This document shows positions 8,964 through 26,674 of a stretch of 64,000 bases of DNA, in pieces. A program made the translations under genes and the position numbers. Each line of letters begins with the position of its first letter. Position 1 is the first letter of the stretch. This DNA is from Bacteroidales bacterium (GTDB lineage Bacteria; Bacteroidota; Bacteroidia; Bacteroidales; WCHB1-69), in NCBI GenBank assembly GCA_024400755.1, contig JAKSMG010000006.1, forward strand, positions 17,361-81,360, written 5' to 3'. The notes beneath the pieces were generated by a model that worked only from the letters and a program-made list of their open reading frames with translations, ran no database searches and was not told where the DNA came from.

Positions 8964-8988
8964 TTACTAATAAGAAAAAATCACTAAA

Positions 8989-9483
8989 ATGGATAAAATA
9001 ATCGTTAAATTGAAAAAAGAAGTCAGGGATAAGGTTGTTGACATTTGCAACCAATTTAATAACGAACCTGGCGAATTGATCAACGTTTTGCACCAAACGC
9101 AAGACTTTTTGGGTTATCTTCCAGCTGAAGTACAGGAACTGATTGCTGAATGTCTGCACATCCCAACCGCAAAGGTTTACGGTGTTGTTTCTTTCTACGC
9201 ATTCTTTTCTATGACTCCTAAGGGAAAATATCCAATTTCAGTATGCTTGGGAACAGCTTGCTATGTTCGTGGCGCTGAAAAAATCCTGGATGCCTTCAAG
9301 AAGGAATTGAACCTTGAAGTAGGTCAGACTTCAGAAGATGGTCTTTTCTCATTGAATTGCTTACGTTGCGTAGGTGCCTGTGGTTTGGCTCCAGTAGCAA
9401 TGGTTGGCAACAAGGTTTACGGCCGTTTGTCTCCTGCCGACGTTAAAGGTATTGTTGACGAATATCGCAATATGGAAAAATAG
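8989..9483 (+). CDS. NuoE-like [2Fe-2S] subunit of the hydrogenase (HydC/HndA)
   Basis: CLGTACYVRGA ... CLRCVGACGLAP cysteine pattern typical of the NuoE family. Confidence 0.85.
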   Translation: MDKIIVKLKKEVRDKVVDICNQFNNEPGELINVLHQTQDFLGYLPAEVQELIAECLHIPTAKVYGVVSFYAFFSMTPKGKYPISVCLGTACYVRGAEKILDAFKKELNLEVGQTSEDGLFSLNCLRCVGACGLAPVAMVGNKVYGRLSPADVKGIVDEYRNMEK

Positions 9484-10143: not shown

Positions 10144-10176
10144 CAATTCAAATAATTGTACATAAAAAAAATTAAT

Positions 10177-11547
10177 ATGGCCTTTGATAATCGTGATAAT
10201 ATTGATTTTGGCAAGGAAAATATTCCCAAACTTTTCCGAAGTATCTTTATTCCTACTGTTTTGGGAATGCTTTTCAATGCCGTTTTTGTGTTAACCGACG
10301 GTGTCTTTATTGGGCATGGAGTTGGGGCGGCGGGCTTGGCCAGCGTCAACCTGGTGGCCCCGATTATGATGATTATCACCGGCTTGGGCATGATGTTCGG
10401 CTCGGGTTGCGCGGTGGTGGCGGCCATTCAACTGGCACAGTCGAAAGTCAAGGTGGCGAGAATCAATATCACGCAGTCGTTTATTGCCTGCCTGCTGTTG
10501 TCGTTGCTGTTGGTGCTGTTTTTCTATACTTGTCCGCAGTTGGTGTTTCGCATCTTGGGAGTCAGCGACAGTCTTCACGAATTGGCGATGGATTATTATT
10601 TATGGTTTTTACCCACTTGCGTGTTTTTGATGATACAGATTTGGGGAGAATTTGTCATTCGTTTGGACGGTTCGCCGCGTTATGTGATGTGTGCCAACAT
10701 CATTCCCGCGGTCATCAATATCATATTGGACTACACGTTTATCTTTCCTTGCAATTTAGGACTGAAGGGAGCGGCCTTGGCCACCGACATTGGTTGCGGC
10801 GTAGGTGCGGTGATGACTTTATTCTATATGTTTTTCCTGCGTAAGCAGTTGTCGTTTTATCCGCTTAAAATGACAAGGACAAGCAACCGTTTGGCGGTGC
10901 GTAACATTGGCTATATGATCAGATTAGGTTTTGCCGCCTTTTTGAGCGAATTGGCCATTTCGGTTATGATGTTGGCGGGCAATATCGCTTTTGCCAAGCA
11001 ATTGGGCGATGCCGGTGTTGCCGCGTACAGTGTGATTTGCTATCTGTTTCCGGTAGTCAATATGATATACATAGCCGTGGCACAATCTGCCCAGCCCATT
11101 ATCAGTTTCAATTACGGAGCGAAGCAGGAAAAGCGGGTGCACGACGCCTTTCGTTACAGTTTGATTGTGAGTTTGCTGATAGGTGCCTTGGCGACTTTGA
11201 TTTTCTTCCTTTTCACTTCAAGTATGGTGTCGGCATTCATAGAATCGACGGATCGGGCTCATATTTTGGCTGTGGGCGGTTTGCCGTGGTATTCCCTTAG
11301 TTTTGTGTTTATCGCGTTTAATGTCGCTGCTATCGGCTATTTTCAGTCTGTAGAAAAAATCACGATGGCCTCGTTGATGATGACCTTGCGTGGAATAGTG
11401 CTTCCGGTTGTGGCGTTTTTATTCTTGCCAATGATCATAGGTGAAATGGGATTATGGTTGGCGATACCGATGGCAGAAATGTTCACGACAATGGTAGAAC
11501 TTATATATTTTGTATTTTTGCGGCGAGAAATTGCTAAAAATGAGTGA
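10177..11547 (+). CDS. MATE family multidrug efflux transporter
   Basis: About 455-aa polytopic membrane protein with the MATE-type N-terminus (IPKLFRSIFIPTVLGMLFNAVFVLTDGVFIGHGVG). The ATG at 10177 is preferred over the TTG at 10156. Confidence 0.85.
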   Translation: MAFDNRDNIDFGKENIPKLFRSIFIPTVLGMLFNAVFVLTDGVFIGHGVGAAGLASVNLVAPIMMIITGLGMMFGSGCAVVAAIQLAQSKVKVARINITQSFIACLLLSLLLVLFFYTCPQLVFRILGVSDSLHELAMDYYLWFLPTCVFLMIQIWGEFVIRLDGSPRYVMCANIIPAVINIILDYTFIFPCNLGLKGAALATDIGCGVGAVMTLFYMFFLRKQLSFYPLKMTRTSNRLAVRNIGYMIRLGFAAFLSELAISVMMLAGNIAFAKQLGDAGVAAYSVICYLFPVVNMIYIAVAQSAQPIISFNYGAKQEKRVHDAFRYSLIVSLLIGALATLIFFLFTSSMVSAFIESTDRAHILAVGGLPWYSLSFVFIAFNVAAIGYFQSVEKITMASLMMTLRGIVLPVVAFLFLPMIIGEMGLWLAIPMAEMFTTMVELIYFVFLRREIAKNE

Positions 11548-12773: not shown

Positions 12774-12807
12774 ATCTTCCGTGCAATACTTTTTATGTGT
12801 GCACTAT

Positions 12808-12835
12808 AGTCCGTTGTTATTTTTTGCAACGGACT
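12808..12835 (+). promoter_or_regulatory. C-box-like palindromic operator candidate upstream of the controller gene
   Basis: Perfect 9-bp inverted repeat AGTCCGTTG-N10-CAACGGACT, 22 nt upstream of the ATG at 12858. The T-rich spacer resembles a -7 element. Confidence 0.4.
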
Positions 12836-12857
12836 GTAATTTTGTTAGTTTCCTTTT

Positions 12858-13094
12858 ATGAAGAGAAAAATGACTATGAATCTACTAAAAAATATTGGTA
12901 ATGAGATAATTAGCTTGCGAAAATCAAAAGGTCTATCGCAGGAAAAGTTGGCATTGAATGCCAACATTGACCGCCGCTATATGAGCGACATAGAAAACGG
13001 CCGCCGCAACATTTCCGTGGAGATGCTTTCCAAAATTGCGAAGGCCCTGGAAACTACTGGAAGTGAAATTTTGAAGGTGGCGGAAAAGGAATAG
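12858..13094 (+). CDS. XRE-family HTH protein, R-M controller (C-protein)-like
   Basis: 78 aa with an HTH_3 core: SLRKSKGLSQEKLALNANIDRRYMSDIENGRRNISVEMLSKIAKAL. It lies immediately upstream of an m5C methyltransferase. Confidence 0.75.
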   Translation: MKRKMTMNLLKNIGNEIISLRKSKGLSQEKLALNANIDRRYMSDIENGRRNISVEMLSKIAKALETTGSEILKVAEKE

Positions 13095-13103
13095 GAGGGG
13101 AGT

Positions 13104-14171
13104 ATGGTAAAGAGGAAATATACATCTTTAGACATTTTTGCAGGAGCTGGAGGCTTGAGCTTAGGAGCCTTACAAGCAGGCATAGATGTGTCAATCGCAG
13201 TTGAGATGGATAAATTCGCAGCTGAAACATATAAGTATAATCATCCCAATGCCCGAGTGCTATGCGATAACATTAGCAATATTTCAACAGAAACATTAAA
13301 GAAGAATTCTTTTTTCATTATTATGGGAGGACCGCCTTGCCAGGGATTTTCTTTGTCAAATACAAGAAGTCGTAATTTAGACAATCCTAAGAATTTCCTT
13401 TTTAAAGAGTTTGTTCGTTTCGTTAAAGATCTTCAGCCGAAATGGTTCCTTTTTGAGAATGTTGGCGGATTCCCTTTGTTTGAAAAAGGGCTGATTAGAG
13501 ATGAGGTTAAAAAGTCTTTTGAAGATCTCGGATATTCTGTCGCAGATTCTGTGTTATGGGCTTCTGATTATGGAGTTCCACAAAATAGAAATAGATTCTT
13601 CATGGTGGGGAACAATCAGGGAATAAATTTTGAATTCCCCCAACCATTTGATTATAAGGTTACTGTTGAAGAAGCTTTAGGAGACCTTCCTTTGCTTGAA
13701 AATGGCGATATGATAGAGCGTGCCGCCTATAGGGAAACGTTAAATCAAGCCAGCCATTATGCTAAACAAATGAGGATTGGCTCGGAAAACGCAACTCAAA
13801 ATTATGTTTCAAAAAATGCTGATTATGTGATTGAAAGGTACAAGTATATCCCTCAAGGTGGGAATTGGAGATCAATTCCGAATGAATTGATGGAAAACTA
13901 TGCAGACAAATCAAGATGCCATAGCGGAATATATCGTAGATTATGTGCTGACAAACCTTCAGTGGTAATCTCTAACTATCGAAAAAGCATGTTGATCCAT
14001 CCTTTTCAGAATAGAGGATTGTCTGTTCGAGAAGCTGCAAGACTTCAATCTTTCCCAGATACATTCATATTCAAAGGTTCGCTTATGCATATTCAACAAC
14101 AAATAGGTAATGCCGTCCCACCATTGTTGGCAAAAGCCGTCTTCGATAAAATTTTGAGCTATGAAGAATAA
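13104..14171 (+). CDS. DNA (cytosine-5)-methyltransferase (island MTase 1)
   Basis: Motifs I FAGAGG, IV GGPPCQGFS, VI ENV, VIII QNRNRFF and X GNAVPP. Confidence 0.92.
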   Translation: MVKRKYTSLDIFAGAGGLSLGALQAGIDVSIAVEMDKFAAETYKYNHPNARVLCDNISNISTETLKKNSFFIIMGGPPCQGFSLSNTRSRNLDNPKNFLFKEFVRFVKDLQPKWFLFENVGGFPLFEKGLIRDEVKKSFEDLGYSVADSVLWASDYGVPQNRNRFFMVGNNQGINFEFPQPFDYKVTVEEALGDLPLLENGDMIERAAYRETLNQASHYAKQMRIGSENATQNYVSKNADYVIERYKYIPQGGNWRSIPNELMENYADKSRCHSGIYRRLCADKPSVVISNYRKSMLIHPFQNRGLSVREAARLQSFPDTFIFKGSLMHIQQQIGNAVPPLLAKAVFDKILSYEE

Positions 14172-16308
14172 CAGTGAGAATATGCACTTCAAATTTGATG
14201 TCAGTACCTTCCGTCTTTTGGGACGGGAACTTATTACTGATAGGGTTACGGCATTATTCGAGTTGGTGAAGAACTGTTATGATGCCAATGCTGAGAATGT
14301 TGTCATCACATTTGAAAATGTCAATCCGATTTCAACAAATAGTAGAATCATCATTGAAGATGATGGAATAGGAATGTCTTACGAGGACATCCGCGACAAA
14401 TGGATGGTAATTGGGACAAGCAGCAAAAGAAGAAATAAAACTTCTCCATCGCCGTATAACAGAGCGGTTGTGGGTAAAAAAGGTGTTGGACGATTTGCTG
14501 TTGATAAATTAGGTTCCTGCTTAATTATGCGAACCAAAAAACTTGGTTCTAATGAGCTTCAATGTCTTGAAGTGGATTGGAGCAGGTATTCTGCAGAAGA
14601 AAGTAATCAGCTGAGTCTTGATTTTGAAGATTTTAATGAACAAAATCATCCTATGTTTACGGATATGGATAATCGGCATTGGATTGAGAACGGCATTGAG
14701 ACTCAGCATGGGACGATATTGGAAATATCTCAACTAAATGATATTTGGACTGAAAATGATATTCGTCGCGCTTACAAAGAATTGTCCAAATTAGTCAGAC
14801 CGACATTGGACATCAAATACCCTTTCAATATAAAAATAAGAGCATCTCAATATCAAGATTATCAAGATAAAAAAGTTGTCAGCAGTGCCCTGAATAAAGC
14901 TACATTGAACTATCATCTTTCTTTTCGGTATGATGAGATAACTAAAAAATATTTTCAAGAATACTTGAAAGAAGAGAAAGGGAACCTTGTCGTTAAAGAA
15001 AAAGAAGCAGAGATTTTCGGTCCCATAGCATTGTCTTTATATTACTATGATAAGAATGCTAAAAGAAATTTTGCAAAAGGAGATAGAATTGATGGGGTGA
15101 AAATATATCGAGATGGAATTATTGCAACCCCGTTCGCTGAATATAAAGAAGATAGAGATGAACAAAAAGATTTATTTGGGATAGATAAACGCCGTTGGTC
15201 TGGATTTTTTGAAAAACTAAGTACGAGAGATTTGCTTGGATGGATTGACATTTCTGAAGAATTGAATCCAAAAATCATAGACTCTACTAATCGGCAGGAT
15301 TTTGTTGATAATGGGGAATGGACGGCACTTAAGTCTTTTGTGATTAATCAAGTACATCAGATTGAGTTGCTATTGAAGCATCAAAAATCTCAGCAGAAAT
15401 CAGAAAATCATGAAAAACTGAAACAAGCAACAGAAGATGTTTCATCAATCAAAGCTAAAATTGAAAAGGTGAAAAAAAGTTCTGCTCTGCTCTCTCCTGA
15501 TGTTGAAAAGGATTTGGATGATATTACTTCAAAACTTGATACTATCAAATTGGCAGTTGACAGTTCTGCAGAGGATTTGACGCAAATGGAACAGAGCCAA
15601 AAGGCACAGGAAAATTTGTTTTTCAGTTTGGTGTCTCTGCAATCTTATGCAGCTCAAATGTCTCATATTTTCCGTACGTCAATTGGATACATAAAACGCT
15701 CTGCTGAATTTGTGGCCAAATGGGTGCCTATAGGAGAGAAACAGGATAAAGTGGTGAAACATGCCAAAATTGTTTTTGAAGACACCAATAATTTGTCTAA
15801 AGCAATGGACTTTATGTTGAGTTATGCTGAAGATGAATCGACTTTTGAATATTTTGACATCCGTCAGGCCGTTTACGAAATCTTTGATGAGCGTTATTCA
15901 TATTTGTTTGAAGAGGAATCCATTAAAGTTGAGCGAATTGTTGAAGATGATTTTGAATTGCTATACAATAAAAAAGCATTCCAGGATATGTTTGGAAATC
16001 TGATTGACAATTCTGCTAAAGCATTAAGAAATGTCAATGACAAAAGAATCAAGTGTAGCGCATCGCGTGAAAAAGATTCACTGGTAATAATGTTTTCAGA
16101 TAATGGCTGTGGCATTCCTAAGGAAAACTGGGATAAGATATTTGATGTGTTCTTTACAACAACCGCCGATTTTGGAGGTGCTGGGTTAGGACTATATATC
16201 ATAAAATCAAGATTGGAATCCATCAAAGGTTCTATTTCCTTGGAAGATAATGAATTCCTTCCCAACGGAGCCACATTTAAAATAACAATACCTTTAAAGC
16301 ATGAATAA
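14161..16308 (+). CDS. cytoplasmic histidine kinase with an extra N-terminal MORC/Hsp90-like GHKL ATPase domain
   Basis: N-terminal GHKL motifs are ELVKNCYDANA, IIEDDGIGMS and GKKGVGRFA. A coiled-coil-like middle region follows. The H-box is MSHIFRTSIGY (His502). The C-terminal CA domain has NLIDNSAKAL, SDNGCGI, FDVFFTT and GGAGLGLY. No TM segments are present. Confidence 0.75.
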   Translation: MKNNSENMHFKFDVSTFRLLGRELITDRVTALFELVKNCYDANAENVVITFENVNPISTNSRIIIEDDGIGMSYEDIRDKWMVIGTSSKRRNKTSPSPYNRAVVGKKGVGRFAVDKLGSCLIMRTKKLGSNELQCLEVDWSRYSAEESNQLSLDFEDFNEQNHPMFTDMDNRHWIENGIETQHGTILEISQLNDIWTENDIRRAYKELSKLVRPTLDIKYPFNIKIRASQYQDYQDKKVVSSALNKATLNYHLSFRYDEITKKYFQEYLKEEKGNLVVKEKEAEIFGPIALSLYYYDKNAKRNFAKGDRIDGVKIYRDGIIATPFAEYKEDRDEQKDLFGIDKRRWSGFFEKLSTRDLLGWIDISEELNPKIIDSTNRQDFVDNGEWTALKSFVINQVHQIELLLKHQKSQQKSENHEKLKQATEDVSSIKAKIEKVKKSSALLSPDVEKDLDDITSKLDTIKLAVDSSAEDLTQMEQSQKAQENLFFSLVSLQSYAAQMSHIFRTSIGYIKRSAEFVAKWVPIGEKQDKVVKHAKIVFEDTNNLSKAMDFMLSYAEDESTFEYFDIRQAVYEIFDERYSYLFEEESIKVERIVEDDFELLYNKKAFQDMFGNLIDNSAKALRNVNDKRIKCSASREKDSLVIMFSDNGCGIPKENWDKIFDVFFTTTADFGGAGLGLYIIKSRLESIKGSISLEDNEFLPNGATFKITIPLKHE

Positions 16309-16909
16309 TACAGAGAAAATGGATGTGGAAATCATCTATATTGATGATGTCTTAAGACCGGAAAAAAACGCCTTCCTTGACGATTTGGAAGGAACCATTA
16401 CGGATGCCAAACAGTTTGACAATCCATCGAAAGGACTTGATTACATCAAAGAAAATATCGATAAGAACATTATTGTTATTTTGGATTGGAGATTTGCTAA
16501 TTGTAGCCAGCAGGGAGCCGATATATTGAATTCAATATATGAAATGTCAGCTTTGGTCCCCGTTATTGTTTTTACAGGAGCCAATATTGATGTGACAGCT
16601 GCTTCAAATATGTTTAAAGGACATGCGTTCAGTTGTCTCTCGAAAGATGCGTCAACGCAAGAGATAACGGATGCAATTGAAGATGCATATCTGCGTATTC
16701 AAAACGACATCCGTTCTGTGATGAGCCGATGGATTCAAAACCTGCCATCTGACAAACGGGAAGCTCCGTATATGTCCTACAAGGACAAAACTTATTCCTT
16801 GAATGATCTTCTTGATTCTATTCGCAGACAGGATGAAATAGGCAAAGAATTGACACGGAATATTTTAGGCCTTGCTGCTGAAATGTTTACCAATAATTTG
16901 AAGAAATGA
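16301..16909 (+). CDS. receiver (REC) domain protein with an uncharacterised roughly 70-aa C-terminal tail
   Basis: Receiver landmarks are IYIDDV (acidic pair), VILDWRF (Asp62 acceptor), VFTGA (Thr) and LSKD (Lys). An 8-nt overlap with the kinase gene supports coupling. Confidence 0.65.
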   Translation: MNNTEKMDVEIIYIDDVLRPEKNAFLDDLEGTITDAKQFDNPSKGLDYIKENIDKNIIVILDWRFANCSQQGADILNSIYEMSALVPVIVFTGANIDVTAASNMFKGHAFSCLSKDASTQEITDAIEDAYLRIQNDIRSVMSRWIQNLPSDKREAPYMSYKDKTYSLNDLLDSIRRQDEIGKELTRNILGLAAEMFTNNLKK

Positions 16910-17553
16910 GACTGAATGCTGTGATTATTTGTGACGATTCAGAAAGCAATGATTTGAAACCTTTGTTTTCAAATCTGATGCGTGAAACATCCAATGCTCT
17001 CTGTGCATATAAAGATGCAAACAACATCGATTTGACACTTGAGAATCTTACACACGAGAGAGTTGATGTTCAGTCTCTTTCAGAGCGTCTTTCAAATGTA
17101 AATCAGAATGACTTTTTGTGCTATGTGTATTCGCATGGTGAGTGCGACAAGGTTCAGATGGATGGAGAAACCATTGTATCAACAACGACCAATCAATATT
17201 TGTTCAGCAATGCCTTGATTTATACATTTTCGTGCAGCAATGGTAGCGAGTTGGCAGATGTATTGATAGACAATGGTGCAAAATTATTTGTAGGATACAC
17301 GGATAACGCTTGGTTTACGATAGGTTGCGAAAATGAATATACCGAAAGAATTGCAATGACATTTGTAAATTCGTTTTTGAACGGTAACAATGCACAAAAA
17401 GCATTTGAAGATTTGAAAGAATCGTATAACAATGTGATATTTGACGATTCGTTGAAAGATCCGATATTGAAAGGAAATCTTCGCAAAAATCGAGACTGCT
17501 TGACACTCAAGGGTGATGGAAATTTAAGGATTTCAGATGTGAAACTGAATTAA
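16906..17553 (+). CDS. minimal caspase/gingipain-like (caspase-hemoglobinase fold) protein, putative protease effector
   Basis: Hydrophobic strand then His (LCYVYSHGE, His77) and hydrophobic strand then Cys (LIYTFSCSNG, Cys110), followed by LFVGYTD. This assignment rests on the motif pattern only. Confidence 0.45.
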   Translation: MRLNAVIICDDSESNDLKPLFSNLMRETSNALCAYKDANNIDLTLENLTHERVDVQSLSERLSNVNQNDFLCYVYSHGECDKVQMDGETIVSTTTNQYLFSNALIYTFSCSNGSELADVLIDNGAKLFVGYTDNAWFTIGCENEYTERIAMTFVNSFLNGNNAQKAFEDLKESYNNVIFDDSLKDPILKGNLRKNRDCLTLKGDGNLRISDVKLN

Positions 17554-17566
17554 TTGGAAGAATTTT

Positions 17567-18703
17567 ATGCCAAAGAAAAAACATACATTTATCGATTTGT
17601 TCGCAGGGTGCGGAGGCTTGAGTCTTGGCCTTGAGCAAGCTGGCTTTGCCCCTTGTTTTGTAAATGAAATTGTTGAAACTTTTTGTCAAACATACAAGGA
17701 AAATCATAATTTGTCAGAAGACAGGTATTACGTTGGAGACATTAATGAACTCAATCAAGAAATTGATAAATTTTCGCCATTATTTAAGGACGTCACTCTT
17801 GTATGTGGGGGGCCTCCCTGCCAAGGATTTTCAATGGCAAATCGTCAAAGAGTTATTGATGATCCAAGGAATCAACTGTATAAAGCGTTTCTTCAATTTC
17901 TTAGTAAAGTAAGACCTCAATTTTTCATCATGGAGAATGTAAAAGGCATGATGAATAAAATAGATGAAATAGAACAAAATTACAAAGATTTCTTGGGCGA
18001 TGAATATGCTTTTGCCTATGACGTGTTAAGAGCCCAAGATTTCGGCGTTCCTCAAAATAGAGAACGGTTGATTTTTATTGGGAACAGAGTTGGAGTTAAT
18101 CCAAAAATGATTTTTGAGGAAATCTACAAGCAAAAAAGAATATCCTTTGTGCTGCGCGATGCGTTGATTGGATTGCCTCATTTAGAATCAAAAACCGACA
18201 AAGGTCAGAAAGATATTGAAAATGATCTGTCTGGTTTTACAGTTCGAGATTTTGAGTATATACAAAATGATTTTTACCATTTTATTAATGGGGAAAAAGT
18301 ACTGACTAAATTGTTCAATCATAAGAATAGGTATAATAATCCGAGAGACATTGAAATATATAGGCGTTTGCCCCAAGGCGCAAATTCGCTTCATGAATCT
18401 ATCGTCGACATTATGCCGTACAAAAGCAGAAATGATATATTCAAAGATAAATATTTCAAACTTGATGAAAATCAAATTTGCAAAACTATAACTTCACACA
18501 TGAAGTACGATTGCAATATGTACATTCATCCATGGGAAGCTAGAGGATTAAGTCCTCGTGAGGCAGCTCGAATCCAGACATTTCCAGATGATTTTGTATT
18601 TACTGGAGCACAAAATCAGTGGTATGCGCAAATAGGAAATGCCGTGCCAGTAAAATTAGCAAAGGCAATAGGTGAAGGAATAATGAAATTTATAGAAAAA
18701 TGA
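17567..18703 (+). CDS. DNA (cytosine-5)-methyltransferase (island MTase 2)
   Basis: Motifs FAGCGG, GGPPCQGFS, ENV, QNRERLIF and GNAVPV. Confidence 0.92.
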   Translation: MPKKKHTFIDLFAGCGGLSLGLEQAGFAPCFVNEIVETFCQTYKENHNLSEDRYYVGDINELNQEIDKFSPLFKDVTLVCGGPPCQGFSMANRQRVIDDPRNQLYKAFLQFLSKVRPQFFIMENVKGMMNKIDEIEQNYKDFLGDEYAFAYDVLRAQDFGVPQNRERLIFIGNRVGVNPKMIFEEIYKQKRISFVLRDALIGLPHLESKTDKGQKDIENDLSGFTVRDFEYIQNDFYHFINGEKVLTKLFNHKNRYNNPRDIEIYRRLPQGANSLHESIVDIMPYKSRNDIFKDKYFKLDENQICKTITSHMKYDCNMYIHPWEARGLSPREAARIQTFPDDFVFTGAQNQWYAQIGNAVPVKLAKAIGEGIMKFIEK

Positions 18704-19779
18704 GACATTTAGAGTTATTTGCAGGTATAGGTGGTTTCAGAAGAGCAACGGATTTGCTCACTAAAGATAAAATAATGAATTTTAATTGCGTTGGATATTC
18801 GGAAATTGACAAAAATGCAATTTCTACCTATTGTGCTAATTTCAAGCCTAATAAGGATGAAATACCCATAGGAGATATTGTGACATTTACCGCACACCCG
18901 CAAAATATCCAATCGCTTCCCGATTTTGATTTGCTCACAGGAGGATTTCCGTGCCAGACATTTAGCATGATGGGGAAAATGGCTGGCTTTAATGAGGATA
19001 GAGGACAGATGTTTTTTCGAATCATGGATATTCTTAAATCGAAGCATCCACGTTATGTTTTACTTGAGAATGTCAAAAATCTTGTCAATCATGACAAAGG
19101 GAAAACTTTTTCAAGAATCAAACAAGAATTGGAAGATTTGGGTTATCATGTTTTTCCAAACATATATAATACAGCTGATTTCCATCTTCCTCAAACCCGT
19201 AATCGTCTTGTTGTGTTTGCAACAAAAGATGATTTAGATGAAAAATGGATGAAAAAAGCATTTACTCCAAGCTCTGTAAAAGAAACATTTGATAATGTTT
19301 ATAAAACATTAAGCACAAATCATTATTCTACAGTAATTGACGTTCTTTCTTCTAAGGCTGATAGTAAGTATTTCCTTTCTGAAAGGATCAAACCGACCAT
19401 ACTTGCCGATGGCTCAGCAAACTTCAAGTCAAAATCGGACATTAATATGAATATTGCTCGTCCTTTGACCGCTACAATGCACAAGATGCATCGTGCTTGC
19501 CAGGACAACTATTATAGTCAGGATTTCATTGAATCCCATGGCAAAATCAATCATGTGGAAGATTACACGAAGGAGCAATTGGCACAATTACCTATTAGAA
19601 AACTCACCCCGGAAGAAGCATTTATGTTGCAAGGTTTCCCAAAACAGTTTGCTACAAATGGTCGAAAAGCTGGAGTGTCAGATGGTGCGTTATACAAACA
19701 AGCAGGAAATGCTGTAAGCGTCAATGTTATTTATGCAATACTATATTTTTTGATTACTAATAATTTAATTGTTGAATAA
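18700..19779 (+). CDS. DNA (cytosine-5)-methyltransferase (island MTase 3)
   Basis: Motifs FAGIGG, GGFPCQTFS, ENV, QTRNRLVVF and GNAVSV. It overlaps MTase 2 by ATGA. Confidence 0.9.
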   Translation: MRHLELFAGIGGFRRATDLLTKDKIMNFNCVGYSEIDKNAISTYCANFKPNKDEIPIGDIVTFTAHPQNIQSLPDFDLLTGGFPCQTFSMMGKMAGFNEDRGQMFFRIMDILKSKHPRYVLLENVKNLVNHDKGKTFSRIKQELEDLGYHVFPNIYNTADFHLPQTRNRLVVFATKDDLDEKWMKKAFTPSSVKETFDNVYKTLSTNHYSTVIDVLSSKADSKYFLSERIKPTILADGSANFKSKSDINMNIARPLTATMHKMHRACQDNYYSQDFIESHGKINHVEDYTKEQLAQLPIRKLTPEEAFMLQGFPKQFATNGRKAGVSDGALYKQAGNAVSVNVIYAILYFLITNNLIVE

Positions 19780-19781
19780 TC

Positions 19782-20831
19782 ATGTTTTTTTTCTTCTTTA
19801 ATAACGAAAACAGGATTGGATTTAAGAAACTGACTGGAGCAGATTTGGGAATTTCTGAAACGAGCCATCAATCTCATATTGGTTTATACGAAGGTGTTCT
19901 GGAGTTTTTAGACGATTCTGATGTTGTAAGATCGGCTATGTTAATCTATGGAGACTACTGCAATGTGTTGGATTGTTCGTTCGACAGAATAAAAAATCCA
20001 GATGGTTCTTACAGAAGCCCTAAAATACGAATAGGCCAAGATTCAGACAATTCAGTTGTTTCAAAGATCAGAGGGTTTGCAAGAGAATATCCAAATGACG
20101 ATTGGTATCTGGCTTGGATGGGATTAGAGAGTAAAGAACTGGTGTTTTGGCTTGTCAAAAGTAGTACGACGGACTACGATACTGCAAGGAATTTTTTTCC
20201 GAAAGATAAAATTGTATTACAGGAAGATTCACCGACCTATAATGCTGCAAAAGATTATCTTTTGAATCGAATAAACTTTCTAAGCGTTGATGTCCAAAAG
20301 GATATTGAGGTCAAAAGTTTGATTGGTGATTCGAGGAGAAAATATAAGGTAAGAGACCTCGAAAATGCAGAACGGCAATTCAAGCTGACAGGGAAAGAAG
20401 GTGAAGAGTTGGTTGCACAATTTTTAGAACGAGAGAAATTGGCGAAACGAGTAGAGTCCTTCGTGTGGGAAAACAAATCTTATGAATCTGGATTGCCGTA
20501 TGATTTTATTGTCAATGGAAAAATTTTTGTTGATGTAAAATCTACAAGATTTGATTTTGAACAATTTTTGTTTTATAGCAATCAAGAGATAGATTTTGCC
20601 GCTGCCCAAAACAATTTGACCTACGCTGTATATAGAGTGTTTGATATGAATATGGAGCAAAGAAAATTGTCCATTTGTAATAACTGTCAGCCGTATATGA
20701 AATCTATACAACAGCCGATTGTTGATTTAAAAAATGCCGTAAGAACACAACATGCTCTTATGCAAAGCATAAAATTGGGATTAAAACCATCTATTTGTTT
20801 CAATGAAATAAGCAACCCTATTTTATTATAA
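19782..20831 (+). CDS. putative restriction endonuclease subunit with a C-terminal DUF3883-like PD-(D/E)xK domain
   Basis: The C-terminal pattern GKEGEELVAQFL...LPYDFIV...IFVDVKST...FLFYSNQEIDFA resembles the DUF3883/NO VEIN-C nuclease fold. The N-terminal FKKLTGADLG... region may bind DNA. Confidence 0.5.
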   Translation: MFFFFFNNENRIGFKKLTGADLGISETSHQSHIGLYEGVLEFLDDSDVVRSAMLIYGDYCNVLDCSFDRIKNPDGSYRSPKIRIGQDSDNSVVSKIRGFAREYPNDDWYLAWMGLESKELVFWLVKSSTTDYDTARNFFPKDKIVLQEDSPTYNAAKDYLLNRINFLSVDVQKDIEVKSLIGDSRRKYKVRDLENAERQFKLTGKEGEELVAQFLEREKLAKRVESFVWENKSYESGLPYDFIVNGKIFVDVKSTRFDFEQFLFYSNQEIDFAAAQNNLTYAVYRVFDMNMEQRKLSICNNCQPYMKSIQQPIVDLKNAVRTQHALMQSIKLGLKPSICFNEISNPILL

Positions 20832-20834
20832 ACT

Positions 20835-22820
20835 ATGGAAGAAATAGTCAAACACATAAACGATACCAATGCTAGTTTTCGCACCCCGAATGCTGGTGAT
20901 GCAAAAAATACGGATTTATTTTTGGATAACGAACAATATGACTTATTTAAAGATGAAGGGGAACAAATTACCGTCCGTTATAACAAAGAAAATCTTTCAA
21001 AAGCCATTCTTTTCATAGCGTCCATACTTCCAAGAAAATATGATAATTCTGGAATGCATAAATCTATCACTTATTCTTCGGAATTTGTATATGACCAACT
21101 GGCTTTTCTGGATTATTTCTTCAAAGAAAGTGGTGTTTCTGTAGATAAGAAAACTCAAAAATGGAATGTTCGTAAGAATGTGCCAAAGAAAAATGGAGAA
21201 ATAGATAATCGATTCTATTTTAATGGGCTTCTGGATGATGTTGAATATGTTAATGTCAAAAAAGAGAGGGTTTCCTCGAAATTCACTATACGCAATTATC
21301 TTGCTGGTGGATATTCTGACCTCCACATAAAAAGGGCTAATGATGGCATCTTTGATGTATGGGTGACAAATGTCCAACAACCATATTTTGATGATAAAGA
21401 AGAATTAGAAATTGAGGATAAGTCGTCACATAATAATCTCCCTCTCCAAACCATCTTCTACGGTGCCCCTGGCACAGGGAAATCACACAAGGTGAAGGAA
21501 GTGACAGAGACCCTGCCAAAGAGCGATGTTTTCCGCACTACGTTTCATCCGGATTCTGATTATTCAACTTTTGTGGGTTGTTACAAGCCCAAGATGGTGA
21601 AAGCGCCTATTAGAGATGGCAGCGGACACGAAATAACCTCGGCATGTGAAGATGAGAAGAAGCGCATTGCATACGAGTATGAACCGCAGGCATTCCTGAA
21701 AGCCTACGTCCGTGCCTACGAAACCAACGATCCTGTTTTCCTTGTCATCGAGGAAATCAACCGCGGTAACTGCGCCCAGATTTTCGGCGATATGTTCCAA
21801 TTGCTGGACAGAAATGAAAACGGCGAATCGGATTACGCCATCAAACCCGAAACGGCCATCCAGGAATTTCTCAACGAAAAGCTGGAAGATTGTGACATTG
21901 CGGATGAAACCATCAAATCGGGAGAAGAGATGCGTCTGCCTGCAAACCTCCATATCTGGGCTACGATGAACACCTCCGACCAAAGCCTGTTCCCGATAGA
22001 CTCCGCCTTCAAGAGAAGATGGGATTGGAAATATATGCCAATCGACACACGAAAAGAATCATGGGGCATCAAGGTAAACGGGACTGAGTACAGTTGGAGC
22101 AGTTTCTTGGAGAAAATCAACGAGGAGATAGGTTCTATTACTAATAGTGAAGACAAAAAACTCGGCTTTTATTTCTGTAAAGCAGAAAATGGCATCATCA
22201 GTGCTGAGAAGTTTGTGAGCAAAGTGCTGTTCTATATCTATAATGATGTGTTCAAGGATTACGGCTTTGAAAGCAGCAAGAACAAAGATCTTTTCAAAGA
22301 TGGTGACAACAAGCTGGCTTTCGGGACATTCTATTCTGATAATGGGAATATTCGAGAAGAAAAGGTTGATCTGTTTTTGAAGAATCTTGGAGTAGAAGAT
22401 GCCAAAAGAAACAACATGATTTCCAATGATGAAGAAGATGAGGACGGGAATAGCTCAACCACCGAAAGCTCAAGTCGTAACTACGATAAATTCTCCATCA
22501 ATGGTTCTGGTAGATATGCAAAAAATAATCTTGCAGCAGAATGTGTGAAGAAGTATATCGAACTAAACTCCGATATCACTGTTGAAGAAGTTCTTCATAA
22601 TTGGAGTGATTTCAAGAACTTAGTACCTCATTTCATGGAATCAAAAGACGAGTTTGATGCTAGGACAGATAACAGCAAACGTTCTCATGAAATTCCGTGT
22701 AATGGATCAGTATTGTACGTGGCACACAATGGCTATGGTAGCAATGGCAAGGCTCAAATATTGATGGACAGCGTGAATCAAAAAGGCTGGGGATTGACAA
22801 TCGAAAGACATAATGCATAA
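20835..22820 (+). CDS. McrB-like AAA+ (GTPase-type) restriction subunit
   Basis: Walker A FYGAPGTGKSH. The McrB signature FLVIEEINRGNCAQIFGDMFQLLDR and HIWATMNTSDQSLFPIDSAFKRRW are both present. N- and C-terminal domains are uncharacterised. Confidence 0.85.
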   Translation: MEEIVKHINDTNASFRTPNAGDAKNTDLFLDNEQYDLFKDEGEQITVRYNKENLSKAILFIASILPRKYDNSGMHKSITYSSEFVYDQLAFLDYFFKESGVSVDKKTQKWNVRKNVPKKNGEIDNRFYFNGLLDDVEYVNVKKERVSSKFTIRNYLAGGYSDLHIKRANDGIFDVWVTNVQQPYFDDKEELEIEDKSSHNNLPLQTIFYGAPGTGKSHKVKEVTETLPKSDVFRTTFHPDSDYSTFVGCYKPKMVKAPIRDGSGHEITSACEDEKKRIAYEYEPQAFLKAYVRAYETNDPVFLVIEEINRGNCAQIFGDMFQLLDRNENGESDYAIKPETAIQEFLNEKLEDCDIADETIKSGEEMRLPANLHIWATMNTSDQSLFPIDSAFKRRWDWKYMPIDTRKESWGIKVNGTEYSWSSFLEKINEEIGSITNSEDKKLGFYFCKAENGIISAEKFVSKVLFYIYNDVFKDYGFESSKNKDLFKDGDNKLAFGTFYSDNGNIREEKVDLFLKNLGVEDAKRNNMISNDEEDEDGNSSTTESSSRNYDKFSINGSGRYAKNNLAAECVKKYIELNSDITVEEVLHNWSDFKNLVPHFMESKDEFDARTDNSKRSHEIPCNGSVLYVAHNGYGSNGKAQILMDSVNQKGWGLTIERHNA

Positions 22821-22842
22821 GAATTAGCATTGAAGAATAAAT

Positions 22843-24423
22843 ATGGCATTTCACATCAACATAGAAGACCTGTTGAACGGCAAGGCGGTGGAAAACAATC
22901 GCCTTGACTATAAAGAAGGATGGAATCCCGATGCCATCTATCGTACCATCTGTGCCTTTGCCAATGATTTTGAAGATACCGGCGGTGGCTACATTGTGGT
23001 GGGCGTGAAGGAAGAAAACGGTCGTGCCGTGCGTCCGGTGATGGGTGTTAATCCGCAGCAGATTGAGACAATTGAGAAGGAAATGGTGGGTTACAACAAC
23101 CTCATACAGCCATACTATCAGCCGCGGTTGTTTATTGAGGAAGCCGACGGCAAAAACATCCTCATCATCAAGGTTATTGCTGGCGAACGCCGCCCTTACA
23201 AAGTGCCTGATTTTATTACAGCCAAGCAGAAAAACTGGAATTACTATATCCGCTATAATAGCAGCTGCATCGTTCCCAAGAACGAGTACGAGGAAGAGTT
23301 GCGAGGGCTTGCCAACCGCGTGCCGTTCGATGATCGTGGCAATGCTGACATCAAGATAACCGATATTTCAACCTCTATTTTACGTGACCATCTCGTGTCG
23401 GTGAAGAGTGCCCTTGCTAACGAGGACATGAGCGGCGAGCGTCTGTGGACAATACTTGATCAAATGGACTTAACGGAACAGACACCCGACGGACCTGTCA
23501 TCCGCAATGTGGCAGCCATGATGTTCTCTGAGCATCCCGACAAGTTCTTCAAGTACTCTCAAGTGGAGATTGTCATCTTTCCTGAAGGACGTGAGCACAA
23601 TCCAAACAACATGATTGAGTTGCCCGTCATCAAAGGACCTGTGCCCTACATGATACGCGACACAATGAATGCCCTGAAGGTGAACGTCATCCGCAAGAGC
23701 ATCCGCAAACAGAAGTTCGACGAGCATTCCATACCCACCTATAATTACCCTTATCAGGCATTAGAGGAGGCGGTGGTCAACTCGCTCTATCATCGCGATT
23801 ATCAAGATCGCGAACCCGTAGAGATAACCATGGAACCAAACAAGATCAGCATTCTTAGTTTTTCCGGCCCTAACCACACCATTAGCATGGATGCCATCCA
23901 TGAGGCCAAACTTCTCCGTTCGCGCAGATATCGTAATCGCCGCTTGGGAGAGTTCCTTAAGGAACTTGATTTGACGGAGGGTCGAAGTACGGGCATTCCT
24001 ACCATTCAAGAAGAACTTGCCAACAATGGTTCACCAGCCGCCACCATAGAAACCGATGACGCTCGCTCGTATTTCATTATTGACATCCCGTGCCATAAAG
24101 ACTTTGTGGGTGATGTTTTGGTGCTGAATGAAGGAGAAAATGCCATAAAGGATGTTGCGAAAAAATTAACTGACAGACAAATGGTTATCTATGAAATCAT
24201 AGCACATGGCACATTGGATGAAACCATAAATGTCCCTGTAAATGTCCCTGTAAATGTCCCTGTAAATGTCCCTGTAAATATTTCTATAAATGTAACAACC
24301 CTTGCATCGTGGCTTATGGTGACGGAGAAGACCATTAAACGCGACCTTTCTGCTATGCAAGCTGCGGGTGTTATCAAGCGAGTAGGTAGCGATAAGACAG
24401 GTTATTGGGAAGTAATTCAATAA
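22843..24423 (+). CDS. AlbA_2 (Schlafen-like) / HATPase_c_4 / wHTH protein (RecG-like putative DNA-binding family)
   Basis: N-terminal RLDYKEGWNP...ICAFANDFEDTGGGYIVVGV. Central VNSLYHRDYQ...RNRRLGEFLKELDLTEGRSTGIPTI. A C-terminal winged-helix domain follows. Confidence 0.75.
   Translation: MAFHINIEDLLNGKAVENNRLDYKEGWNPDAIYRTICAFANDFEDTGGGYIVVGVKEENGRAVRPVMGVNPQQIETIEKEMVGYNNLIQPYYQPRLFIEEADGKNILIIKVIAGERRPYKVPDFITAKQKNWNYYIRYNSSCIVPKNEYEEELRGLANRVPFDDRGNADIKITDISTSILRDHLVSVKSALANEDMSGERLWTILDQMDLTEQTPDGPVIRNVAAMMFSEHPDKFFKYSQVEIVIFPEGREHNPNNMIELPVIKGPVPYMIRDTMNALKVNVIRKSIRKQKFDEHSIPTYNYPYQALEEAVVNSLYHRDYQDREPVEITMEPNKISILSFSGPNHTISMDAIHEAKLLRSRRYRNRRLGEFLKELDLTEGRSTGIPTIQEELANNGSPAATIETDDARSYFIIDIPCHKDFVGDVLVLNEGENAIKDVAKKLTDRQMVIYEIIAHGTLDETINVPVNVPVNVPVNVPVNISINVTTLASWLMVTEKTIKRDLSAMQAAGVIKRVGSDKTGYWEVIQ
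24227..24295 (+). repeat. in-frame 12-bp tandem repeat (TAAATGTCCCTG x4 perfect plus 2 degenerate)
   Basis: Read directly from the sequence. It encodes (VNVP)4 followed by NISINV inside the C-terminal wHTH region of the AlbA_2 protein. Confidence 0.9.
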
Positions 24424-24433
24424 AAAGACAACT

Positions 24434-26674
24434 ATGCGCCTCATCATAGAAGAACACCGGTATCCCGTTGACAAGGTCAAAGATGTCCTTGACGGCATCT
24501 CCACATTGCGTGATGTGGATGGGCTGGTCAGCGTCAATTATGTGGGCTATTACTACAATCCCACATTGAAGGATTGTGTGTTTATTCTTCCCAAAGTGTT
24601 GCTTGATGAGAGTGAAAAGGTGTTCGGGCATTGCTCTCCGGAAGATATCATTGATCTTGAAAATCAAGATTGCCTTACACAAGAAGAACACGACTTCATA
24701 TATGAATTGTCCGTTTGGATTTATCGCGCTATCGTGGTTTATCAGGATAGCAAGCCGCAGAACAATATCGTACTGAAACAGAATGTCCAGCAAATGGCCA
24801 AAGGCCGGTTGCGTCAGTGCAATACGTTTTTGGACATCCTTTTGGCTATGCTGAAGTTCAACCGCGAGAACCAGGATTTCTTCTTCTTTATTTTGCGGAA
24901 TATCCATTCCGGATACAACAAAATCAATTGGACACGGACCATCAGCCACACATCAGCCATTGTACAGGACAACTCTCCGGTGTATCTGAATCCTGTCAAC
25001 AAGAAACGACAAATCAACTTTGATGAAGAATTGCTGATTATCTTTTTTTCCATCCTGAACTACATCAATGAACAATATGGCTTTCCTGTGCAGATTAATG
25101 TGAATTTTCCTTTGATCAAGGGTGAAATGTTTGAGCATTATCGCAAGGAAATGGGCAAGGCAAAGCTGATGCAAATCAAATACAAGTATTTCTCCGATAA
25201 AGCTCTTTATCTATGGGAACTTTGCTATGCTTTCTTTGACCAGAGCAAGAAGATCAATGTGGAGACGGACGACAAAGAATATCTGTTGGTAAAGAATTTC
25301 AACATTGTATTTGAAGCCATTATTGACGAATTGATAGGAGCGCCTGAATCCGAGACACCAAGTGGATTGAAAGACCAGGGAGATGGAAAACGCGTTGACC
25401 ACATTTACCAGTACAAAGACTTGATTCACAACGAAGAGGACAAGCCCGTTTATTATATCGGCGATTCCAAATATTATAAGCGGGGTGCTCCTATTGGAGA
25501 AAATTCCGTTTATAAACAATTCACGTACGCCCGCAATGTGATTCAGTGGAATCTGGATCTCTTCAATGATTCGCAAGTAACGGAACTCAACGGACATATC
25601 AAGTTGCGTGACGATGTTACCGAAGGTTACAATGTGATTCCTAATTTCTTTATTTCTGCCCAGCAGAATACATTGGGACGCTCTTTCGATATCCAACAGA
25701 CGACGAATGAACAGAAATACTACCAGTCCAAGCAATTCGATAACCGATTGTTTGACAGGGATACTTTCCTTATTGCGCATTACGATGTGAATTTCTTATT
25801 TGTGGTCGCTCTGTACGGACGGAACAATAAAGGTGAAAAGTCAGCTTGGAAAGAGAAAGTGCGTGGAATGTTCCGCCGCGAAATACAGGCTATGTTGGAG
25901 CAGAACTTTAACTTCTACGCCATTACCGCCAAAGAGGGTGTCAATGCGGCCGCCTATATAGATGATCATTTTCAGGAATTATTGGGAAAGATTTTCACTC
26001 CGTATCCGGACAGGGAAGGACAGAAGTATTTTTCTGTTGCATTGGATAACCGAGAAAATTTTTCTGAAGCTAACGAGACCTTATTGAATCAACTAAAGGA
26101 AAACTTTTATGTTGAGCAATGTGAACATATATCTGATGATCCTAAAGCATTGCTTCCAGAAGTCGCACCATTTGTTCAACAGATGGCCGTACCTTCCAAT
26201 TTCCTTACATATCATTATCTGGAAAAATATGCCGATAAATTGATTCTCATTGGTTGCTATCACAACCAGGCACATTTGAATTGGATTTTAGGCAACAACG
26301 ACAAAGGAACGCTTATCTATAATGTCCGCTTGGATAAGAGTCGCCCAGGTGCACAGAAAATAACACAGTTGTCAAACAATGTCGCTTGTTTTGTCATTCT
26401 TTACGAACAAGCTCATGAGCACGAAAACAAATACCGTGTATTCCACGTTCACCATCATGCCACGATGACGGAAGAAAGAATGCGCAAGGCGCGTTATCCA
26501 GAGCCACAAGGCAAGTACTTCTGTTATGTTTTCGACGAGGAGGTAACATTGGGAAATCTTGACATAGCAGCATTGATTGCCAATGAGCAAAGAACAAATA
26601 CGGATTTTATTCAGGGTTCCCCAATTTTCAAGACTGGCAAAGAATTGATTAAATATAGAAAACACAACACTTGA
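24434..26674 (+). CDS. McrC / LlaJI-R2-like restriction endonuclease subunit with a long C-terminal extension
   Basis: McrC-like N-terminus (VNYVGYYYNP...CVFILPKVLL). PD-(D/E)xK core RVDHIY ... YYIGDSKYYK. It is paired in the operon with a McrB-like gene and two m5C MTases. Confidence 0.65.
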   Translation: MRLIIEEHRYPVDKVKDVLDGISTLRDVDGLVSVNYVGYYYNPTLKDCVFILPKVLLDESEKVFGHCSPEDIIDLENQDCLTQEEHDFIYELSVWIYRAIVVYQDSKPQNNIVLKQNVQQMAKGRLRQCNTFLDILLAMLKFNRENQDFFFFILRNIHSGYNKINWTRTISHTSAIVQDNSPVYLNPVNKKRQINFDEELLIIFFSILNYINEQYGFPVQINVNFPLIKGEMFEHYRKEMGKAKLMQIKYKYFSDKALYLWELCYAFFDQSKKINVETDDKEYLLVKNFNIVFEAIIDELIGAPESETPSGLKDQGDGKRVDHIYQYKDLIHNEEDKPVYYIGDSKYYKRGAPIGENSVYKQFTYARNVIQWNLDLFNDSQVTELNGHIKLRDDVTEGYNVIPNFFISAQQNTLGRSFDIQQTTNEQKYYQSKQFDNRLFDRDTFLIAHYDVNFLFVVALYGRNNKGEKSAWKEKVRGMFRREIQAMLEQNFNFYAITAKEGVNAAAYIDDHFQELLGKIFTPYPDREGQKYFSVALDNRENFSEANETLLNQLKENFYVEQCEHISDDPKALLPEVAPFVQQMAVPSNFLTYHYLEKYADKLILIGCYHNQAHLNWILGNNDKGTLIYNVRLDKSRPGAQKITQLSNNVACFVILYEQAHEHENKYRVFHVHHHATMTEERMRKARYPEPQGKYFCYVFDEEVTLGNLDIAALIANEQRTNTDFIQGSPIFKTGKELIKYRKHNT

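Follow-up and report, generated by a model that had tools for sequence, protein, structure and literature searches.

A minimal caspase-fold protease candidate encoded with a methylase-linked two-component cassette in Bacteroidota

The DNA analyzed here, hereafter the window, is a stretch of 64,000 nucleotides from a Bacteroidales bacterium (assembly GCA_024400755.1, contig JAKSMG010000006.1, positions 17,361 to 81,360 of the forward strand). It contains a gene for a protein of 215 amino acids (aa) that almost certainly has a caspase fold with a His/Cys dyad, and that is encoded directly downstream of genes for a C5 cytosine DNA methyltransferase (Dcm), a histidine kinase (HK) and a response regulator (REC). 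This protein, hereafter the protease, defines a new, small family of clan CD. Taken as a whole, the model towards which we lean slightly is that it is an active, cytoplasmic, minimal clan-CD enzyme acting as the REC-switched effector of a methylation-linked two-component cassette. The arrangement points to a bacterial conflict system that has not been described, in which a protease would take the place normally held by a restriction enzyme.

A small protein family with a predicted clan-CD fold

16906-17553, + strand: candidate clan-CD protease gene with an ATG start, encoding 215 aa

The open reading frame (ORF) was present as originally predicted from the DNA sequence, and its four quoted motifs were found at residues 5 (AVIICDD), 71 (LCYVYSHGE), 104 (LIYTFSCSNG) and 127 (LFVGYTD). 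The predicted dyad consists of His77 (codon CAT, 17134-17136), directly followed by an invariant Gly78, and Cys110 (codon TGC, 17233-17235). An identical protein is listed as ‘hypothetical protein MJZ52_03955’ in a Bacteroidales metagenome-assembled genome (MAG). Since every family member seen was annotated as ‘hypothetical protein’, a definition of the family would improve the annotation of gut and rumen Bacteroidota.

Searching 5.8 billion proteins with a word index yielded 70 homologues at E<=0.01. Among 69 aligned close homologues, nearly all of 209-217 aa and with 41-90% identity, His77, Gly78 and Cys110 were invariant. An exhaustive HMMER profile search of 1.84 billion cluster representatives then gave 492 family representatives at E<=1e-3 (191 at E<=1e-10), almost all of 196-219 aa, and no domain fusion of the protease was found among the best 150 of these 492. 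In a broad alignment of 130 full-length representatives and the query (131 sequences, median identity 25%, minimum 19%), the only columns with 100% conservation were again His77, Gly78 and Cys110, and the same three were the sole invariant columns of a separate 124-sequence alignment. Conservation of both proposed dyad residues was thus confirmed in relatives down to about 20% identity. Gly130 was conserved at 99% in the 131 sequences and Asp10, at the end of strand beta1, at 89%. Because other clan-CD enzymes have S1-pocket residues at the topological position of Asp10, this residue is a candidate for the role, and a basic P1 residue would be a reasonable guess. Divergent members were also found in other Bacteroidota (Draconibacterium, Chitinophagales and Paludibacteraceae). 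No copies of the protease were detected by tblastn in plasmid and phage collections or in two scans of viral contigs, which argues for a host-side element.

The AlphaFold2 (AF2) model of the protease, computed with the 69-sequence alignment, had a mean predicted local distance difference test (pLDDT) score of 93.2 and a predicted template modelling (pTM) score of 0.91. Its core strands, flanked by helices, span residues 2-9, 42-49, 70-75, 103-108, 127-131 and 199-203; their parallel or antiparallel pattern was taken from the structural matches and not read off the model. The predicted structure is a six-stranded alpha/beta/alpha sandwich as in clan CD, where five strands run parallel and one antiparallel. 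The third core strand is closely followed by His77 and the fourth by Cys110, in the clan-CD arrangement in which His-Gly and Cys end successive core strands, His first. The protein had been proposed to show both the dyad order and the dyad spacing of the caspase-hemoglobinase fold, and the His-then-Cys order, each residue after a core strand, was borne out. The spacing argument was not: the 33 residues that equal the distance between His211 and Cys244 of gingipain R are a property of this sequence, and the distance ranges from 31 to 36 across the family, with 33 in 49 of the 131 sequences. The match to gingipain R in this respect carries no weight, since the distance varies within the family.

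Foldseek comparison of the model with the PDB gave 62 matches at E<=1e-3. The best was the activated SAVED-CHAT filament (8tl0, E 1.5e-6, template modelling (TM) score 0.63), and further leading matches were caspase-7, caspase-8, gingipain R (1cvr, E 1.6e-4, TM 0.61) and caspase-3. The Foldseek probability was 1.0 for SAVED-CHAT, caspases and gingipain R, with query-normalised TM scores of 0.5-0.63. In a viral structure library, the model matched metacaspase-like, caspase-domain and clostripain-like proteins. The predicted topology and the clan-CD matches thus agree with the caspase/gingipain-like fold first proposed for the protein. The absence of a signal peptide also held, residues 2-9 forming strand beta1 in the AF2 model, as did that of any additional domain, none being reported by Pfam, NCBIfam or PADLOC.

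At the level of profiles, Pfam Peptidase_C25 (PF01364) was matched by 19 of the 69 homologues at E<=1 (best E 7.6e-7), colinearly with profile positions ~160-374, which correspond to the catalytic half. A single homologue, P0045, passed the cut-off (29.1 bits against a curated 23), and the window protease itself gave no Peptidase_C25 match at E<=1. Judged by sequence, the protease is a remote relative of Peptidase_C25 and not a member. It also lacks the secreted multidomain architecture of gingipains, its 215 aa being the catalytic fold alone with beta1 at the N-terminus. Peptidase_C14 was matched by one of the 69 homologues at E 0.15 and the CHAT Pfam model by none of the 69; as far as the predicted structure goes, the likeness to the C14 and CHAT families is structural only. 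With hhalign, the family motif FxFxaYSHG aligned with FVCVLLSHG of human caspase-3, SHG on SHG, a weak match (pairwise E 0.0016) that agrees with the fold.

Clan CD includes transamidases, and the C25 family also covers the PorU lineage, which is sortase-like and belongs to the type IX secretion system (T9SS). A caspase fold that works without hydrolysis, as a transpeptidase or ligase of the legumain, GPI8 or PorU type or as a silent scaffold bridging REC and other proteins, is a reading to which we give a rather small chance. It is in keeping with the fact that no substrate can be named for the protease. However, the His-Gly pair and the Cys are absolutely invariant in about 130 sequences at 20-45% identity, which speaks against a pseudo-enzyme, and a transpeptidase would differ in reaction outcome alone, since the same dyad would serve.

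Some matches were set aside. Those to alpha-galactosidase, DOA1 and lectins, obtained in sequence-only PDB profile searches, were considered spurious. Weak matches to DUF6446 in 29 of the 69 homologues (best E 0.014), covering residues ~107-146 from Cys110 to beta5, were treated as noise; this similarity is either noise or may be a remote link to another uncharacterised family.

The protease belongs to a conserved four-gene cassette

In the window, the protease gene is directly preceded by three genes:

13104-14171, + strand: C5 cytosine DNA methyltransferase Dcm1, the first core gene (Pfam DNA_methylase, E 1e-69)
14161-16308, + strand: soluble sensor kinase HK of 715 aa (Pfam HATPase_c_3, E 8e-25; HATPase_c, E 1e-25)
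16301-16909, + strand: response regulator REC of 202 aa (Pfam Response_reg, E 3.4e-7)

The stop of dcm1 overlaps the start of the HK gene (14161-14171), the HK and REC genes also overlap at stop and start, and the REC stop and protease start share the sequence ATGA at 16906-16909.

We sought the same arrangement elsewhere. A first series of loci (L001-L025) came from the contigs of six close homologues and from a scan of 185,579 species-representative genomes (GTDB); all come from rumen or gut MAGs of Bacteroidales, Prevotellaceae, Phocaeicola or Salinivirgaceae. Loci L026-L030 came from three relatives at 23-26% protease identity. Another 27 metagenome loci were retrieved with a degenerate DNA pattern spanning both catalytic motifs, and all 27 encode genuine members. 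Annotation with profile hidden Markov models built from the cassette proteins was thus applied to a total of 57 additional loci (L001-L057) from Bacteroidota genomes and metagenomes.

The order Dcm-HK-REC-protease, on the same strand, was found in 30 of the 30 loci of the first set; Dcm was seen in 28 of 28, the contigs of the remaining two ending within HK. In the independent metagenome set, wherever the contigs were long enough, REC lay directly 5' of the protease (24 of 24 loci), HK 5' of REC (20 of 20) and Dcm 5' of HK (10 of 10). The relatives at 23-26% identity retain the core, with different downstream genes. These data bear on the possibility that the protease gene is an unrelated passenger whose caspase-like pattern is coincidental, an idea fed by the lack of a direct match of the window protease in any family library. 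Against it stand the adjacency and order seen in 100% of the 57 additional loci where the contig reaches, at protease identities down to ~23%, the stop/start overlap, and a high-confidence fold with clan-CD matches in two structure libraries. The passenger explanation, to which we assign a vanishingly small chance, is effectively refuted.

Downstream of the protease, gene content varies. Most loci of the Bacteroidales clade have McrB/McrC-like genes 3' of the cassette, together with 0-2 extra methylases. The ORF next to the 3' end of the protease gene encodes Vsr in 8 of 10 loci tested in the divergent clade (E 1e-30 to 1e-35); past vsr, several of these loci continue with ORFs on the other strand. 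Most divergent loci contain no nuclease beyond the repair nickase Vsr and no other candidate effector in the cassette. In distant loci, the downstream genes encode Fic and a 1419-aa protein, a SIR2_2-nSTAND NTPase, GmrSD_N or HD-CE. The defence-type genes found directly 3' of the protease are:

L026, 11265-16658
L028, 9051-11309
L029, 4806-5876
L036, 2027-2736
L043, 2089-2847

These could be swappable secondary effectors or merely defence-island neighbours. Because the downstream genes vary while the core stays, the conserved unit is methylase-kinase-regulator-protease(-Vsr), and the restriction genes of the window are an add-on of one clade. The protease had been placed inside a restriction operon; this is true of the window's Bacteroidales clade and does not extend to other loci, where the part that is kept is Dcm-HK-REC-protease, in most cases with Vsr behind it.

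The same comparison bears on whether the protease might be a maturation or licensing factor for the adjacent McrBC/LlaJI-like complex, cutting an inhibitory segment upon a kinase signal and thereby making restriction conditional. McrB-like and McrC-like genes do follow the cassette in the same operon, in the window as in most Bacteroidales-clade loci, and two-component genes have been noted in methyltransferase-associated McrBC operons (Bell et al. 2024, PMC11090510). In the divergent clade, however, the cassette occurs without McrBC and either ends at Vsr or is followed by SIR2-nSTAND, Fic, GmrSD_N or HD-CE genes. Since the core occurs without McrBC genes, McrBC is not a general substrate and licensing would at best be a clade-specific elaboration; we consider it unlikely as an account of the cassette.

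A sensor kinase with an apparently intact phosphorelay

HK comprises an N-terminal GHKL domain (residues ~10-210), a conserved middle region (~300-400), a coiled-coil linker, and DHp and CA domains (~475-713). The N-terminus is a GHKL ATPase of MORC/paraMORC type (HATPase_c_3). The corresponding part of the window (14161-14790) matches the N-terminal domain of BbrUII/HgiDII (NF050001, E 1.3e-20; PADLOC REase_II, E 5.8e-14). As an architecture, HK looks like an HgiDII-type enzyme in which the nuclease half has been swapped for a histidine-kinase core. Its segment 21-40 (GRELITDRVTALFELVKNCY) has a mean pairwise identity of 95% across 30 loci.

Among 24 HK sequences, the invariant residues of the GHKL domain are E34, N38, D67xGxG and G105-G110 (G105KKGVG), and those of the kinase core are H502 in the H-box ‘SHIFRTSI’, N613, D647xGxG and G673xGxG. 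In a profile search, residues 475-713 aligned with canonical kinases of the PDB, namely ZraS (E 4e-20), HK853, SrrB and WalK. Both HATPase_c_3 and HATPase_c were detected in 20 of 20 kinases, and HisKA in 3 of 20. On the side of the regulator, D15, D16, D62 and K115 are invariant in 24 sequences, D16 and D62 also in a wider set. The pair therefore has the residues of a His-Asp phosphorelay (H-box, N, G1 and G2 boxes, and the acidic pair, phospho-acceptor Asp and Lys of REC), and judging from these residues the phosphorelay is apparently intact.

The regulator and its tie to the protease

REC has a receiver domain with D15/D16, D62, T92 and K115, and Pfam Response_reg was matched by 21 of 24 orthologues. 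In the AF2 model (pLDDT 79.6), the receiver adopts a (beta-alpha)5 fold. It is followed by a small, non-canonical C-terminal module (~140-201) made of a long helix, a beta-hairpin and two helices, which is modelled with a pLDDT above 90 and is the most conserved part of the regulator.

The REC stop overlaps the protease ATG in about 40 of 44 non-redundant loci, as ATGA in the Bacteroidales clade and as ATGAnTAA in the divergent clade. This overlap argues for translational coupling and for stoichiometric co-production of REC and protease. The phosphorelay control that had been proposed for the protease is favoured by the obligate synteny, by this overlap and by the seemingly intact HK/REC pair.

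Another reading is that REC is a transcription factor and that the protease acts elsewhere, for example by degrading the methylase, Vsr or REC so as to tune methylation and repair or to reset signalling, in a cassette that would be epigenetic or housekeeping rather than immune. Several features are compatible with it: the C-terminal module is confidently folded as well as highly conserved, the top full-length Foldseek matches of REC are DNA-binding regulators of NarL/StyR type, some sources label REC homologues ‘DNA-binding NtrC family response regulator’, and Dcm and Vsr are housekeeping-like partners. However, the NarL/StyR alignments have a root-mean-square deviation of 8-13 Å and are driven by the receiver domain, and neither Pfam nor NCBIfam found a helix-turn-helix (HTH) family across the 24 orthologues. 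The beta-hairpin of the module is absent from LuxR-type HTH domains, the 4- or 8-nucleotide overlap of the REC and protease genes fits stoichiometric partners better, and the setting in low-GC islands with restriction-modification (R-M) and defence genes speaks against a housekeeping role. We therefore judge this alternative improbable, about on a par with the licensing of McrBC.

Evolutionary distances were also compared among cassette proteins. Between distant loci, identity was ~49% for the kinase, 28-30% for the regulator and 23-26% for the protease. Mean pairwise distances across L001-L057 were 0.41 for the kinase, 0.45 for the methylase, 0.52 for the regulator and 0.63 for the protease. 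Outside its catalytic motifs, the protease evolves fastest in the cassette, which might fit a role where host and parasite meet. Partial correlations computed on pairwise distances were 0.34-0.84 for HK-REC, 0.17-0.56 for REC-protease and 0.01-0.27 for HK-protease, the lowest; on the full set, the partial-Mantel p for REC-protease was about 5e-4, and the mirror-tree partial correlations suggest a Dcm-HK-REC-protease chain.

Proposed mode of action

In the proposed mechanism, the methylase would mark self DNA. The GHKL module of HK, which takes the place of the HgiDII nuclease half, would sense an abnormal DNA or methylation state, MORC ATPases being ATP-dependent DNA clamps, and HK would then autophosphorylate on His502. 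The phosphate would move from His502 to Asp62 of REC, and phospho-Asp62 would alter the C-terminal module, which would bind the co-translated protease and switch it on. The protease would cleave host or system proteins, with growth arrest or death as the outcome, as in abortive infection or post-segregational killing. Alternatively, its cleavage might license neighbouring effectors, such as the McrBC/LlaJI-like module of the window. We infer in this way the activity of the protease, its activation by REC, the sensed signal, the substrates and the role in defence. More tentatively, and with a confidence that stays short of even, the cassette may be an R-M-like self/non-self system with a non-nuclease ‘restriction’ arm, in which a MORC-type clamp fused to a kinase would read the methylation or foreign-DNA state and, through its dedicated regulator, switch on the minimal caspase-fold protease, with death or arrest of the cell as the outcome; abortive infection or post-segregational killing would then be methylation-gated, phosphorelay-triggered and caspase-executed.

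Several points weigh against the model of a REC-switched clan-CD effector. The window protease had no match in Pfam (E<=1), NCBIfam or PADLOC, and sequence-only PDB searches with the close and the broad family profiles returned no clan-CD chain; because these direct searches were empty, the fold call rests on the predicted structure and on weak profile matches of homologues. The PADLOC models of known and candidate defence systems did not recognise the HK/REC/protease trio, and the role in defence is read from neighbours of R-M and defence type only. The context sample is biased, covering two clades and three distant members out of 492 representatives. REC and the protease are separate polypeptides, and the C-terminal module of REC could be a DNA-binding domain, in which case the output would be transcription. 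Finally, the covariation of REC and protease is moderate and is a hint only, since it is not robust within the Bacteroidales clade, nor after distance correction.

Relation to known systems

With the known members of clan CD (caspases and metacaspases of C14, gingipains of C25, clostripain of C11, CHAT proteases and the CRISPR-associated SAVED-CHAT 8tl0), the protease shares the six-strand fold and the order of His-Gly then Cys after successive core strands. As with SAVED-CHAT and Craspase, its setting is a putative conflict system of prokaryotes, and a sensor acting upstream presumably switches it on. Unlike known clan-CD enzymes, it is ~200-215 aa long and has no pro-domain, sensor, adaptor, Ig-like or secretion domain, and its presumed activator is a phosphorylated REC, not a cyclic oligonucleotide, a CRISPR complex or an NTPase.

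The closest relatives of the signalling genes were described by Bellieny-Rabelo, Pretorius and Moleleki (2021, PMC8011034), who reported soluble HATPase_c_3 kinase-like proteins with a new DHp domain, ‘HEF_HK’, paired with ‘Response_reg_2’ proteins. These pairs were linked in 91.6% of cases in 644 regions, with C5-methylases upstream and often Vsr downstream, and they are related to paraMORCs; a regulatory role for R-M systems was proposed, and several neighbouring orthologous groups, among them OG_8, OG_16, OG_20, OG_24 and OG_294, were left uncharacterised (PMC8011034). The words caspase, peptidase and protease are absent from that paper. The present cassette has in common with these pairs a kinase with HATPase_c_3 and HATPase_c, an adjacent receiver, an upstream C5-methyltransferase, a frequent Vsr and a connection to paraMORC and R-M systems. 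It differs from them in its HisKA-like DHp and canonical Response_reg receiver: HEF_HK (PF19191) was matched by 0 of 20 kinases and Response_reg_2 (PF19192) by 0 of 24 regulators. Since HK and REC match the canonical models instead, the cassette is a sister architecture and not part of the HEF_HK family. The association of kinase, regulator and methylase is thus already published for the sister family (PMC8011034), and the protease appears to be the new part.

In Detocs, a two-component phosphorelay drives a cell-killing anti-phage effector (Rousset et al. 2023, bioRxiv 10.1101/2023.01.24.525353). Its effector, in most cases a PNP ATP nucleosidase, forms a fusion with a receiver (DtcC), the receiver-only DtcB acts as a buffer, and no methyltransferase is present (bioRxiv 10.1101/2023.01.24.525353). 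The cassette shares with Detocs the HK-to-receiver relay, a three-protein signalling core and a receiver protein without a canonical output domain. Unlike Detocs, whose kinase reportedly has a different (TPR) sensor, it has one receiver protein, a separate caspase-fold effector candidate in place of a DtcC-type fusion, and an obligatory Dcm. PADLOC gave no Detocs-type match for HK, REC or protease.

The N-terminal GHKL domain of HK is homologous to that of HgiDII/BbrUII, and the pairing with a C5-methylase resembles an R-M unit; unlike HgiDII-type enzymes, HK has a histidine-kinase core in place of the nuclease part. With its McrB-like gene, its putative McrC/LlaJI-R2-like gene and its extra methylases, the operon of the window further resembles LlaJI. 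In a census of CoCoNuT and McrBC systems (Bell et al. 2024, PMC11090510), a passing remark states that methyltransferase-associated McrB branches often occur with two-component genes, and no caspase component is described there. A survey of caspase-containing conflict systems (PMC7159879) includes no histidine kinases among the effectors described. Our literature search found no report of the protease and no paper naming both ‘paraMORC’ and ‘caspase’. MADS was considered as a known system and rejected, having an N6-methyltransferase, eight different genes and no kinase, receiver or caspase logic.

Caspase-fold proteases are emerging as executioners of prokaryotic immunity, for example CHAT/Craspase, SAVED-CHAT and gasdermin-activating proteases. 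To our knowledge, the triggers of such executioners are CRISPR complexes, cyclic nucleotides or STAND NTPases. On the more tentative self/non-self reading, the protease would be the first of the caspase family under His-Asp phosphotransfer control. The cassette would add this control logic to those known, together with a different input: its MORC-type GHKL module, a homologue of part of a restriction enzyme, would read a DNA-methylation mark. At ~200-215 aa and without accessory domains, the protease would be about the smallest free-standing caspase-fold enzyme and attractive for studies of activation in trans. A minimal caspase that is phosphorelay-linked and methylase-coupled would be surprising to specialists and is directly testable, its functional steps being conjectural. 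At least for the sister architecture described here, the protease also provides the missing candidate effector for methylase-linked two-component-like loci without an output (PMC8011034).

Operon and genomic island in the window

The protease gene is part of an operon (12858-26674, + strand) of closely packed genes that all run in one direction; its members outside the four-gene core are:

12858-13094, + strand: small regulator of HTH_3 (Cro/C1) type, the first operon gene (Pfam HTH_3, E 2.3e-15)
17567-18703, + strand: second C5 methyltransferase (Pfam DNA_methylase, E 1.6e-70)
18700-19779, + strand: third C5 methyltransferase (Pfam DNA_methylase, E 1.5e-77)
19782-20831, + strand: NOV_C protein of 349 aa with a restriction-endonuclease-like C-terminus (Pfam NOV_C, E 4.8e-9; PADLOC PDC-S36, E 2.7e-6)
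20835-22820, + strand: McrB/LlaJI-R1-like AAA+ GTPase with MNTSDQ, of the NxxD type (AAA_5, E 1.6e-9; NCBIfam McrB, E 1.2e-6; PADLOC REase_II, E 4e-46)
22843-24423, + strand: SLFN/AlbA_2 protein with HATPase_c_4 and HTH (SLFN_AlbA_2, E 4.7e-16; HATPase_c_4, E 2e-7)
24434-26674, + strand: McrC/LlaJI-R2-like putative nuclease subunit of 746 aa, the last operon gene (Pfam RE_LlaJI, E 2.4e-4, below the cut-off)

The HTH_3 protein looks like an R-M controller (‘C’) protein, and its gene is outside the conserved core of other loci. A hairpin with a 13-bp stem (TATAGTCCGTTGT...GCAACGGACTGTA) at 12805-12838, 20 nucleotides 5' of this gene, could serve to terminate the gene before it or be a palindromic operator bound by the HTH_3 protein. 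The two additional methyltransferases are clade-specific, other loci having 0-2 at this place, and none of the other loci inspected showed the NOV_C gene, which here separates the third methylase gene from the McrB-like one. The McrB-like gene recurs 3' of the cassette in most Bacteroidales-clade loci. Its 746-aa partner has phmmer homologues in other loci with DUF2357 and PDDEXK_7, RE_LlaJI or McrBC domains. The SLFN/AlbA_2 gene, wedged between the McrB-like and McrC-like genes, contains a short peptide repeat (NVPVNVPVNVPVNVPVNISINV), and the GC content reaches 49% at 23-24 kb. An SLFN-like ORF occupies the same position in L018, so the McrBC-like module may repeatedly have such a gene as an accessory.

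The GC content is 35-39% across 12-21 kb and 42-48% in the flanks, and the borders are a MatE transporter gene (10156-11547) and a RhuM-family gene (27379-28377). The flanking genes are housekeeping ones ([FeFe] hydrogenase, MatE) plus the RhuM-family gene, and the region looks like an acquired island. No tRNA or integrase gene is adjacent to it in the window, the nearest tRNA being at 53555. A sigma-70 promoter scan was uninformative, with 55 sites against 46 expected, and Bacteroidota promoters are of a different type. Upstream of the island, at 7173-9483, are genes for the large subunit of an [FeFe]-hydrogenase (Fe_hyd_lg_C, E 2e-95) and a thioredoxin-like 2Fe-2S ferredoxin, ordinary genes of anaerobic metabolism that would fit a gut or rumen Bacteroidales host.

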